Shown here piece after piece: positions 43,900-63,392 of a DNA stretch of 64,000 nt (positions within the stretch are counted from its first letter, which is position 1; every line of letters starts with the position of its first letter). Made by a program: the position numbers and the translations under genes. The stretch is taken from contig CM069165.1 of the NCBI GenBank assembly GCA_035221665.1, positions 3,534,001 to 3,598,000 of the forward strand, read 5' to 3'. Below the pieces are notes generated by a model, which did no database searches, had not been told where the DNA came from, and worked only from the letters and a program-made list of their open reading frames with translations. The stretch is from Okamejei kenojei (Eukaryota).

Positions 43900-43927
43900 G
43901 CTTTTTGTATGACAATTGAACACCGTG
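43900..43927 (-). promoter_or_regulatory. D1 5' 12-RSS
   Basis: Plus strand GCTTTTTGT - ATGACAATTGAA (12) - CACCGTG. Confidence 0.93.
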
Positions 43928-43940
43928 GGGACAGGGGGGA
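43928..43940 (+). CDS. TRBD1: TCR beta diversity segment D1, GGGACAGGGGGGA
   Basis: Nearly identical to the conserved vertebrate TRBD1 core GGGACAGGGGGC; flanked by 12- and 23-RSS; open in all three frames (GTGG/GQGG/DRG). Confidence 0.95.
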
Positions 43941-43979
43941 CACGGTGTTTCCTTCCGATGCAGTCCCTGTACAAAAACC
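43941..43979 (+). promoter_or_regulatory. D1 3' 23-RSS
   Basis: CACGGTG - TTTCCTTCCGATGCAGTCCCTGT (23) - ACAAAAACC. Confidence 0.95.
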
Positions 43980-45072
43980 TCTCTCCCCTCTGCTGCATCA
44001 CCGACACCCGGGCAGTTACTGCGTCCACGGATGTCCCGGGCGCAAGGAGGGACAGGATGGTGTATAAAGGGAAAGAGGTAGATAGAGAAGGCAGAGAGGG
44101 AGGGAGAGCGAGTGCGAGAAAGAGACAGAGAAAGTGTGAGGGGGTGGGAGAAAGTGGCTGAGAAAAAGGGAGATTAAAGGCACGGATAGAAAGGTTATTC
44201 ATGTGAACGTACCACTCTCTCCTATCATTTACCCTCGCTCCCTATTCCCCTCAGCTTCTCCCACTCGCCCCCCCCCCCCCCCCCCACATTCTCTCTCTCT
44301 CTCCCTCAGCTGCGATACTAATTTCGGACGCTGTCTATCTGTGTGGAGTTTGCACGTTCACATTATTTTTTATTTGCCTTTCAGATTATTTCTCCCCAGA
44401 GCCTTAATCATCTACTCTCCATCTCTCTTTCCCTCCTCATTCCCTTCCATTCCCTCCACCAACCCGTTCACTCCCTCCACATCTCAACTCCATCTCGTCA
44501 CATTCTCTTCCCCTTCACTCTTTCCCCACTCACTTTCGCTGTTTTTCCCTCTCCTACTATCTGCCTCCCAGCACCACCTCCCTCTCGCACCGTCTATCAC
44601 CCGACTCTCCCTTCTCTCTCTATGTCCGTCCCTCCCTCACCCTCCCTATTCCCTCTCTTTCTGCCACTCTNNNNNNNNNNNNNNNNNNNNNNNNNNNNNN
44701 NNNNNNNNNNNNNNNNNNNNNNNNNNNNNNNNNNNNNNNNNNNNNNNNNNNNNNNNNNNNNNNNNNNNNNNNNNNNNNNNNNNNNNNNNNNNNNNNNNNN
44801 NNNNNNNNNNNNNNNNNNNNNNNNNNNNNNNNNNNNNNNNNNNNNNNNNNNNNNNNNNNNNNNNNNNNNNNNNNNNNNNNNNNNNNNNNNNNNNNNNNNN
44901 NNNNNNNNNNNNNNNNNNNNNNNNNNNNNNNNNNNNNNNNNNNNNNNNNNNNNNNNNNNNNNNNNNNNNNNNNNNNNNNNNNNNNNNNNNNNNNNNNNNN
45001 NNNNNNNNNNNNNNNNNNNNNNNNNNNNNNNNNNNNNNNNNNNNTCGCTCTCTCACTCTCTCTCTGTCTCTA

Positions 45073-45103
<31 letters not shown>

Positions 45104-59619: not shown

Positions 59620-60108
59620 CGCACTGCTCCATAACACTCCCTGGCTACATGAGACGCCTTTCAGGGAAAAATGTACCTGCATTCCTCGATCCCTCCGCTC
59701 AACAACAATCCCTGTCTTCCTGTGACACCAACCAGAAACAATATACCTGCACTCCTAGATCACTCAGCTCTAAAGCACTCACCATCTACCTTTGACGGTA
59801 CTTTCAGTGAACGACTATATGGACCTGTAGTTCTGGATCCCTCTGCTCTGCAACACTCCATGATTACGTGTGACCGCATTCTGGGAACTATGTACTGCAC
59901 CTCTAGATACCTCTGCTCGAGAACACTCCATCTACACCTAATACACCACTTTCCTGGAATTATGCACCTGCACCCCAATATCCCTCTGCACTGCAATACC
60001 ACCTGTCTACCTGTGACGCCCATTTCAGGGAACTATTTACATTCACTCCAAGACCCCACTGCTCTTCAACACTCCCTGCCTATATGTGATACCGCTTTCA
60101 GGGAACTA
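59620..60108 (-). repeat. ~73-bp degenerate minisatellite derived from CR1 RT sequence (inverse copy at about 54800-55040)
   Basis: Units translate like EQRDLGVQ...SLKV..QVD; gagcagag-type anchors spaced about 73 bp. Confidence 0.65.
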
Positions 60109-61603
60109 CGGAGGGTGGGGGTGGACGAGGAAAGTGGAAATAAATCACTTGTTTGTTTCTGCCTTGCATAGTTTGGCTTCCGTTGGCTTCCGGAAATACT
60201 GAGTCAAACGGAAAAAAATGCCGACAGAGATTGAACAAAACAGGCGAGTCGAGAATAACAAGTAGCAGGTGCCTGAGAGGAGGCGGCAGAACTTGCGGAT
60301 GTGGTGTAAATAACAATTGTCTGTTCAACTACAACGTTGCCTGTCTAAAGTAGGTCACACTATCTCCGCCCGGTTTGTGGTCGAACTAGTTCTCGACATT
60401 TGAGCTTTAGTGCGTTGTACTGGGAAGGGATCTAGGCACCTGTTTATTTGTCTTTCTCACTCTCTCCCTCTCCTATCACCTCTCCCTCTCTCTCTGTTTC
60501 TAGCTCNNNNNNNNNNNNNNNNNNNNNNNNNNNNNNNNNNNNNNNNNNNNNNNNNNNNNNNNNNNNNNNNNNNNNNNNNNNNNNNNNNNNNNNNNNNNNN
60601 NNNNNNNNNNNNNNNNNNNNNNNNNNNNNNNNNNNNNNNNNNNNNNNNNTTTCTAGAACAGAGATGGTTAGTATACGATGAGCGTTTGACAGGTCTGGGC
60701 CTCCATTGTCCTCTAAGTCAATGGTTATTTTTAAGGAGATAGAAACATTCTTGATTAGAAAGCGTTATTGGGAAAACACAGGAAATTTGAATTATGAGGT
60801 AGAGATCTGCCACGATCGAATGGCGGAGTAGACACGATGTGCCGTATGGCCTAATTCTACACCTCTAACATGTGAACTTGTGAATTTGTGATGTATCTCT
60901 CTGAGTTTGGCTGACCAGTGTTACACTATATTTTATGCAGATAGACTGGAAACCTGGAGAGGAATTCAGTTGGTCTCTAACCAGCAACAAATCTGGTAGA
61001 TATGACAAACACAAAACAATCGTGAGACCATATTGACCGCTATAAATGTTGTTATAATACATGCGTCAAATACACCCACTGGCAGCTCGTTCCACATACC
61101 CACCACCGTCCGTGTGAAAAATATGCTCCGCAAGTTCATATTAAATCTTTCCCCCTCTCACCTAAAACACATGTCCTCTGGTTCTTGATACCCCTACCCA
61201 CGGGGTATCCACGGGAATTGTGGAGGTCTTCCTTGAACGTTGGTTGCCGCGGGGGGGGGGGGAGGGCAGGGGGGTGGTGTGGGGGAGGGGAGTGTATTGT
61301 AGATAAAGATGGCACTATTGTATTGTAATAATCGCCTGATGTAATGTAACCATTGAAAGTCTCGGTACATTCTCATACACTGTAAAGTGCAAATACTGAA
61401 TAAAGCCCTTACGAAGGAAAGACAACCGTGAACGGTGGGAAGTGCGGAGGAACAGAGGGGCCTCACGGTGCCACGATATGACACAGATATATGAGGACGC
61501 TGGTGGGCCGATGGATGTTTGGGGGGAGGAGGGGAGAGGTGGTGGGGTTGTTAACCTGCCCCACCTCTCAGGTGCGATTATTTATATATGCAGGGATCGG
61601 ACT

Positions 61604-61631
61604 AGTTTTTGAACGGTATCCGATCGCTGTG
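61604..61631 (-). promoter_or_regulatory. J4 12-RSS
   Basis: Plus strand AGTTTTTGA - ACGGTATCCGAT (12) - CGCTGTG. Confidence 0.88.
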
Positions 61632-61681
61632 TTCCAACAGTGAAGCCTATTTTGGAATCGGAACGAAGTTAGTCGTTCTCG
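61632..61681 (+). CDS. TRBJ: TCR beta joining segment J4, SNSEAYFGIGTKLVVL
   Basis: FGxG motif, 50 nt, donor G|GTGAGT. Confidence 0.93.
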
Positions 61682-63392
61682 GTGAGTTGAAACAGCGTCT
61701 GTGAATACGAATAGAGGAGCGGGGGAGCGGGGGAGCAGGGGAGCGGATGAGGGAGTAAGAGGAGGGAGAGGCAGAGCGAGGGCAGAAAGAAAGAGATGAA
61801 GGAGTAGCGGAGAGTTAGAGAGGAAGAGAGGGTGAGAGAGGGTGAATAGGAGAGTAAGAGCGAGGAGGAAGAGAGAGTGAAATTAGTGCGAGTGAGAGAA
61901 AATTGGGAGATTGATGGAGGGGGGATACGGAGGGGGAGTGACAGGGGGTAGGGATAAAGAGACGGGGAGATGGGGAGAGGGATAGGGGTAGGGATAGAGG
62001 TCGTGGGGCGGAGGGGAGTATGGTGAGCTAAATAACTGAGGGTGGAAAACATTGCGGTTAGTTTGCCACAGCCAGGGATGAGCTATTAGAAATATTGTAA
62101 CTGTCGAAATTCCATACAATGGAAACCGGCATAATCAAGCTGGGGGTGCTGAGGGAGAGGGGAGGCAGATAGTGGTGTTGGAGAAAGAGAGGGGAGGGGG
62201 AGAGGCAGAGAAAGGGAGAGGGAGCGAGATGGAGGGGAGAGAGATGGTGGGGTAGGAGGGGGGGGGCGGGAGGAAAAAGAGAGGGGAGAGAGATAGAGGG
62301 AGTGTGGGCGAAAGGGGATAGGGAGAATTGGAGAGAATGTAGAATAGAGAGGGGTGGGGTGAAAGGGGAGAGATGGAGTGGGCGGAAGTGGATGGGATAC
62401 AAGCTAAGCAGTTTATAGCCGGGACTCAGAGGTGGGGAGTGGCAGGGATCGGTTGTCCAATGTCCCCGGCAAAAGGGAGCGGCGGGAGGATCAAGCGTCT
62501 CTTTGCTTCTCGCCCACCTCCTCCGTCGCCTTAGTGACATTCCTTATTTCCAGAGATGCTGCTTGTCCCGCTGAATAACGACAGCATGTGTGCCTATGTT
62601 TGGTTTAAACCAGCATCTGCATATCCTTCCAACANNNNNNNNNNNNNNNNNNNNNNNNNNNNNNNNNNNNNNNNNNNNNNNNNNNNNNNNNNNNNNNNNN
62701 NNNNNNNNNNNNNNNNNNNNNNNNNNNNNNNNNNNNNNNNNNNNNNNNNNNNNNNNNNNNNNNNNNNNNNNNNNNNNNNNNNNNNNNNNNNNNNNNNNNN
62801 NNNNNNNNNNNNNNNNNNNNNNNNNNNNNNNNNNNNTTTTCATTTTAAAAAAAAATCGGCATGATAATGTACATCGTTAAATTGCCAAAGTATAAAACAT
62901 GACATACATATTTGAAATTCATAAGTATAATTACAAGTATACAGTGCATGGATAGATATGCCGCTGTACATGAACTCGCAATAGGCCTATAGCCCTTTAT
63001 TGATTGCTACACGTTCTTGCANNNNNNNNNNNNNNNNNNNNNNNNNNNNNNNNNNNNNNNNNNNNNNNNNNNNNNNNNNNNNNNNNNNNNNNNNNNNNNN
63101 NNNNNNNNNNNNNNNNNNNNNNNNNNNNNNNNNNNNNNNNNNNNNNNNNNNNNNNNNNNNNNNNNNNNNNNNNNNNNNNNCTCTGTTCCCCCTCTCTCAC
63201 TCATCTCTTTCTCCCTGTCTCTATCTCTCCGCCCCCTCTCTGTGTGTCCTCTCTCTCCGTCTCTATCTGTCTCTCTATCTCCCCATCTGTCAATCTCTCT
63301 GTCTCTCTCTGTCACTCTCTGTCACTCAAGTGTCACTCTCTGTCACTATCTTTCTCTCTATGTGTTTCTTTCTTTGTCTCTTACTCTTTCTG

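Follow-up and report, generated by a model that had tools for sequence, protein, structure and literature searches.

How can two clusters of diversity (D) and joining (J) segments operate in a T-cell receptor (TCR) beta locus when no constant (C) gene stands between them? The question is raised by a 64,000-nt stretch of the Okamejei kenojei genome (G000:C35:3534001-3598000 in a 2.76-Gb assembly; called the window below), where signal and motif scans placed six segments, all on the plus strand, in the order D1-J1-J2-D2-J3-J4. The initial annotation had listed these segments and proposed that both clusters share one C gene beyond the window; all six were recovered, and a C gene, C1, was found downstream of position 64,000, where that annotation had advised looking. 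We think it probable that the window holds one arm of a two-armed, head-to-head TCR-beta (TRB) locus in which D segments are nested among J segments ahead of a single C, and that this arm functions like the two-cluster locus of mammals, but with one C.

Each J segment of the window (Table 1) is 50 nt long and has an FGxG motif, an open frame and a GT donor; D1 and D2 have 13 nt and three open frames each. D1 lies 9.3 kb upstream of J1, and the J spacing is as first described, from 661 bp (J1 to J2) to 3.9 kb for the widest steps. Two D-type cassettes were present in the window, and 200 of 200 doublet-block shuffles contained 0. A genome-wide search with the D-cassette pattern gave six matches, all inside this locus or on an alternative contig, C576 (C35, C576 and C67 are contigs of the same assembly); the reversed-pattern control gave 0. 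The C576 copy of D1 has exactly the G-rich D1 core that vertebrates conserve, as given in PMC11754216; the window D1 is one base off, and all frames are open.

The J2-D2 interval (1,247 bp) contains no N and no C-like sequence. It had been described as gap-free and made of repeats only, which holds for its GA microsatellite and dispersed repeats but not for ∼130 bp of conserved non-repeat sequence next to D2. Over the whole distance from D1 to C1 there was no C remnant: in the window haplotype the best tblastn E-values were 7.1 with C1 as a query and 2.2 with C2, the C gene of the second arm, and the corresponding stretch of C576, which has no N, gave 2.3. Neither tblastn with the two C exons nor blastn with the region of the C1 exon, run across D1-C1 on each haplotype and across the second arm (arm B), gave anything above noise in the exon, which tells against a hidden or decayed C between the D-J clusters. 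A motif scan of 200 kb downstream found no J or C motif besides C1, with no extra J ahead of it. One could also suppose that a C exon between J2 and D2 was lost by assembly error, given N stretches in the window and scaffold gaps elsewhere. This is extremely unlikely: the interval, itself free of N, is collinear in the separately assembled C576, the whole assembly has just three C-beta-like exons with >70% identity (C1, its C576 copy and C2), and J1 splices to C1.

The spliced nature of four public runs with four species labels (X6, X9, X13 and X15) was read off their contigs. Contigs of all four end at C exon borders, and the listed loose ends enter exon 2 in three of them; since contigs break at exon borders and continue to exon 2, the transcripts are spliced. 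In X6, a different sample with the same species label as the window, two loose ends preceding the C1 exon have the letters of J1 and J4. With both J1 and J4 spliced to C1, a J upstream and a J downstream of D2 share C1, and the shared downstream C proposed in the initial annotation is borne out. Contigs bearing J4 start ∼6 nt (X6, judged from bin depths) and ∼3 nt (X15) inside J4, with no germline cover upstream; from these starts we infer that J4 was rearranged somatically.

Judged by its sequence the locus is TRB: the D, J and V (variable) signals, the D1 core, the C exon set and its relatives all fit. Among database sequences, those closest to C1 were a gene model of the little skate, at 74%, and a pair of shark proteins that carry the name TCR-beta-like, at 49% and 53%. 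A PDB search with the C returned, among the 60 matches listed, generic immunoglobulin (Ig) C1 matches only.

What, then, could a D segment placed among the J segments do? All segments had been credited with correct 12/23 recombination signals. Spacer lengths are indeed correct (a 5′ 12-signal and a 3′ 23-signal in D, a 12-signal in J, a 23-signal in V), but several nonamers are degenerate, including those of J1 and J2 and the one in the 5′ signal of D2. Heptamer/nonamer mismatches, counted against the consensus, were 1/1 for the 5′ signal of D1, 2/3 for that of D2 and 1/0 for both 3′ signals; for J1, J2, J3 and J4 they were 2/5, 1/5, 1/3 and 1/2. The A run is the most sensitive part of the nonamer; the J nonamers retain at least four consecutive A, and the D2 5′ nonamer is interrupted there by TT. 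Two more D segments, D3 on C576 and D′ in arm B, are of the D2 type: the 5′ nonamers of D2, D3 and D′ have 3, 6 and 4 mismatches, and the 5′ CAC heptamer is kept in all three. All four D have three open frames and 23-signals with one or two mismatches. The non-repeat block upstream of D2 contains CCAAT-, GC-box- and CRE (cAMP response element)-like words; it is likely a D germline promoter. At 17 nt from the heptamers of D2, D3 and D′ there is another word resembling a nonamer; it was rejected, as it matches neither spacer class. The J4 nonamer pairs also with a heptamer-like word inside J4 (61604-61642; 23-nt spacing, 2 + 2 mismatches), a possible cryptic signal.

Going by geometry and the 12/23 rule, D1 would join any of J1-J4 by deletion, D2 only J3 or J4, and D3, where present, only J4. 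V segments would join by deletion or inversion, depending on orientation, and a rearranged J would be spliced to C1 across the leftover J and D segments. We expect D1 to carry most of the repertoire, with D2 and D3 as a minor route, and V-D1-D2-J chains to be rare, because the 5′ signals of the D2 type are the weakest among the D. A failed V-D1-J1 or V-D1-J2 could be rescued by an upstream V joining D2-J3 or D2-J4, a second chance per chromosome.

Use of the D2-type segments is itself expected, since all three paralogues have kept the 23-signal, the frames and the upstream block. One might argue that D2, D3 and D′ are relics hardly ever joined by V, and the arm a plain D1-J(4)-C unit: the damaged 5′ nonamer is common to all three, D3 is dispensable on one haplotype, and the bamboo shark arms are annotated with a single D each in PMC10322711 (supplement file 16). 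Such decay seems unlikely, as the three retain 23-signals, 5′ CAC heptamers, open frames and ∼130 bp upstream, while the wider flanks drifted to 66-79%. The initial annotation had stressed V-D-D-J joining and secondary D-J replacement, both of which the 12/23 rule would permit but which need the weakest signal of the D set and do not depend on the missing C. In a further reading, internal D would serve mainly for V-D-D-J (or V-D-D-D-J) chains with a long complementarity-determining region 3 (CDR3), as in TCR-delta. The 12/23 geometry allows D1-D2, D1-D3 and D2-D3 joins, and PMC10513440 describes D1-D2 joins in human, rat and mouse TRB, with V-D1-D2-J2 chains in human. As the main role of internal D, fusion is nevertheless very unlikely: it needs the weak 5′ signal of D2 or D3, and the nested layout is not required for it, because mammals make D1-D2 joins with C1 in place.

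The unplaced, N-free contig C576 (96 kb) aligns collinearly to the window with 91-98% identity. While its four J and single C correspond, it has three D: the segment order is that of the window plus D3 between J3 and J4. No recombination signal was found at the junction of the block carrying D3. Units D2-J3 and D3-J4 align in blocks that are 66-79% alike (80% for J3/J4) and, by this comparison, are tandem paralogues, so the window haplotype likely lost D3; before that loss, the arm likely arose when D-J units were duplicated without a C, and not because an internal C decayed. The D3 block is likely a germline presence/absence polymorphism. Bearing on allelism, the X6 C1 transcript has six of six C576-type differences at 279-531, where a window-type contig is absent. 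In X5, one piece matches the window with 0 differences over 239 nt, and another has 11 of 11 C576 differences plus 2 more. X1 and X5 have one record each with a one-mismatch span at 61134-61207, matching the prediction for the D3 block's left edge.

If C576 were paralogous, forming a third arm of its own instead of the other allele, D3 would be no polymorphism. Its divergence of ∼2-9% in aligned blocks would suit a paralogue, as would the presence of window and C576 types in sample X5 too and an upstream V on C576 unlike any V of C35 (best 75-78%). We still hold a third arm to be improbable: X6 has only C576-type C1 and C2, X15 has two C types, not three, and a second unplaced contig, C67, is also collinear with the V region, as unpurged haplotigs would be.

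The four J had seemed a small set, with more expected beyond the window. No further J precedes C1, and C576 adds a D but no J; the additional segments lie in the inverted arm B, ∼250 kb upstream, which adds four J (three J, then D′, then one J) and its own expressed C. In the same order as in the window arm, J′a is 93% identical to J1, J′b 84% to J2 and D′ 80% to D2 (133 nt). Both the weak 5′ nonamer of D′ and its upstream block are similar to those of D2; as D′ is internal and D2-like, an internal D is common to both arms. Ends of the C2 type occur in three of the four public runs; in the remaining run a piece breaks off at this same position. A tree of six sequences groups C1 and C2 away from both shark C with support 99 and puts the model from the little skate with C2 (77); the pair may reflect a duplication in batoids or else an old pair that was later homogenised. 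A third partial C-beta copy is located downstream of C2 (G000:C35:3270779-3274899, minus strand); it has exon 2 and a frameshifted exon 3, and no Ig exon was found.

The locus has two outward-facing arms, each ending in C, with V between. No leading D for arm B was found by relaxed cassette scan, local alignment or the genome-wide pattern; a 500-N scaffold gap 7.6 kb upstream of J′a could hold one. It is conceivable, though doubtful, that D1 is the master D of both arms, the three upstream J of arm B being reached via a 250-kb inversion or by direct V-J joining and the D2-type segments, of which haplotypes differ in number, acting as second D or editing segments. This idea rests on arm B having no leading D found, and on D2-type segments combining a strong 3′ signal, a weak 5′ signal and a putative promoter of their own. 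If true, it would mean that the arms share a D and that the count of possible D-D fusions varies by inheritance.

The intact V-beta of the window lies ∼5 kb upstream of D1 and is inverted relative to it; it would join the window arm by inversion or the mirror arm by deletion. By eye, it resembles the V of a whale shark TCR-beta model. Between the arms (G000:C35:3351229-3573005) there are, by tblastn, 12 V or fragments of V, oriented in both directions, five of them with an open frame and a signal (one with a 24-nt spacer). A scan of 964 kb with an eight-V profile and signals, which divergent families could escape, found no V beyond either C, across 275 kb past C2 and 390 kb past C1. A search of the genome with the Pfam V-set profile, in which 150 of 1083 candidates were scored and none of these lay on C35, is uninformative on V number. 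Set against the 35 V rows of the bamboo shark table, five open V with a signal on C35 would be an unusually small set if complete.

C67 (356 kb, unplaced) has matches to both ends of the V region, separated by 293 kb on C67 and by 43 kb on C35; it contains ∼250 kb of extra DNA with at least three additional intact V-beta. The V at C35:3475794 is frameshifted, and its C67 copy is open. C67 is likely an alternative haplotype of the V region, and both D number and V number likely differ between the haplotypes of one animal.

Table 1. Features of the TRB locus (positions without a contig name are those of the window)
Feature	Position	Strand	Remarks
D1	43900..43979 (signals included); 13-nt core 43928-43940	+	12-signal, core, 23-signal; sole D with near-consensus 5′ signal
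J1	53185..53262; coding 53213-53262	+	SSYEATFGNGTKLVVL; degenerate nonamer; joined to C1 by splicing in run X6
J2	53846..53923; coding 53874-53923	+	INNEAIFGNGTKLVVL; degenerate nonamer; 86% identity with J1
Non-repeat block upstream of D2	55040..55142	+	conserved among D2, D3 and D′
D2	55143..55222; 13-nt core 55171-55183	+	weak 12-signal; near-consensus 23-signal
J3	57711..57788; coding 57739-57788	+	TYEEAYFGTGTKLIVL; signal and motif scans
Site of missing D3 block	61201..61202		
J4	61604..61681; coding 61632-61681	+	SNSEAYFGIGTKLVVL; joined to C1 by splicing; transcripts start inside J4
C1 exon 1 (C1-set)	G000:C35:3608261-3608611		12.6 kb past J4, 10.3 kb past window end
C1 exon 2	G000:C35:3610706-3610726		21-nt hinge with cysteine
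C1 exon 3	G000:C35 from 3612386		transmembrane, with lysine
D3	C576:54128-54140		inside 3,139-bp block C576:52329-55467 lacking from window
V-beta, intact	exon 38696-39005; 23-signal 38657-38695	-	near-consensus signal; V-set E 2e-11
Mirror arm (arm B), J′a-J fragment-J′b-J′c-D′-J′d-C2	G000:C35:3309948-3330746	-	∼205-225 kb upstream of window
C2 exon	C35:3309948-3310295	-	77% amino acid identity with C1; exons 2-3 intact

Several observations weigh against the nested one-C arm and the polymorphic D3 that we favor. Splices in this species were seen for J1 and J4 only, not for J2 or J3 (X6 contigs), and the contigs gave no CDR3 letters, so that the use of D2, D3 and D′ is a prediction. Mismatch counts are a poor predictor of signal activity: J nonamers are equally degenerate by count, yet J4 appears rearranged. 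Orientation of arm B depends on a scaffold join, the 500-N gap at C35:3338348-3338847 (one of three 500-N gaps in 964 kb); a little skate gene model has the same V family and a C2-type gene on one strand, in line with this orientation. Divergence between C576 and the window amounts to 2.3% for the C exon (8/350), 2.9% for the V exon (9/306) and more for non-coding sequence, which is high for alleles. The D3-less junction is bridged by no contig shown in a second sample, the alignments being swamped by the repeat at 61130-61200.

Cartilaginous fishes are the outgroup for TCR-beta history, and this locus shows D-J units multiplying without C inside a head-to-head locus of the shark type. Haplotypes with and without D3 would make a natural experiment on what an extra D contributes to CDR3 diversity. 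Strong and weak 5′ signals on otherwise similar D segments offer a direct test, outside mammals, of signal quality ordering V-D-J joining.

We found no TRB map of a skate or ray in the literature, including the accessible parts of PMC12529555, PMC12698447, PMC5278385, PMC6795676, PMC13433984, PMC5931798 and PMC12227049, a coverage that mostly excludes subscription journals. The brownbanded bamboo shark TRB, as it appears in one supplementary table (Giorgetti et al. 2023, PMC10322711, supplementary file 16, Table 3), reads C1-J7-D1, then five V, then D2-J7-C2; its arms face outward, and 15 V lie past each C. The two loci are alike, as far as that table goes, in having two outward D-J-C arms, few V of both orientations between them, 13-nt D and two C. 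One D heads seven J in each shark arm, with none annotated in the table among the J, whereas here D2 (with D3) and D′ are internal and each arm has four J; the window arm has two or three D, not a single one at its 5′ end, and the sole D found in arm B is internal. The V clusters that the table places past each shark C have no counterpart in the flanks scanned here.

In the lungfish Protopterus annectens, rows from the same source (PMC10322711) put D2 and 11 J without a C of their own upstream of D1-J-C1, and an opposite J run with no D annotated in those rows before C2. By those rows the lungfish clusters are ∼820 kb apart with four V between, while those of the window are separated by 1.2 kb in which no segment lies. 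The skink Tiliqua rugosa, as described in PMC11754216, has three D, six J, a single C and signals described as canonical; several D, few J and a single C are features of our arm too, but the skink account has one arm only and here there are two. Salmonid and pike TRB, as described in PMC10464911, are head-to-head (C-J-D-V...V-D-J-C) with V in the middle; V are central here as well, whereas that text gives those fishes one D per unit and many V, mostly oriented as their own arm.

In the mammalian order D1-J1-C1-D2-J2-C2, as here, D1 reaches all J and D2 the downstream J, with D1-D2 fusion and rescue by a second D both possible; the consequences drawn in the initial annotation are thus the same as those of the mammalian locus. 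Mammalian TRB has one orientation, a C between clusters and six to seven J per cluster (the latter from mouse rows in PMC10322711); here no C lies between clusters, and neither haplotype gives each D-J cluster a C of its own, as tandem D-J-C cassettes would. Each ingredient of the layout, which is a modest variant of known layouts, has precedent; two features appear undescribed: the close nesting of D-J-J-D-J-(D)-J-C, which has an echo in the other arm of this locus of a cartilaginous fish, and the presence or absence of D3 as a likely polymorphism.

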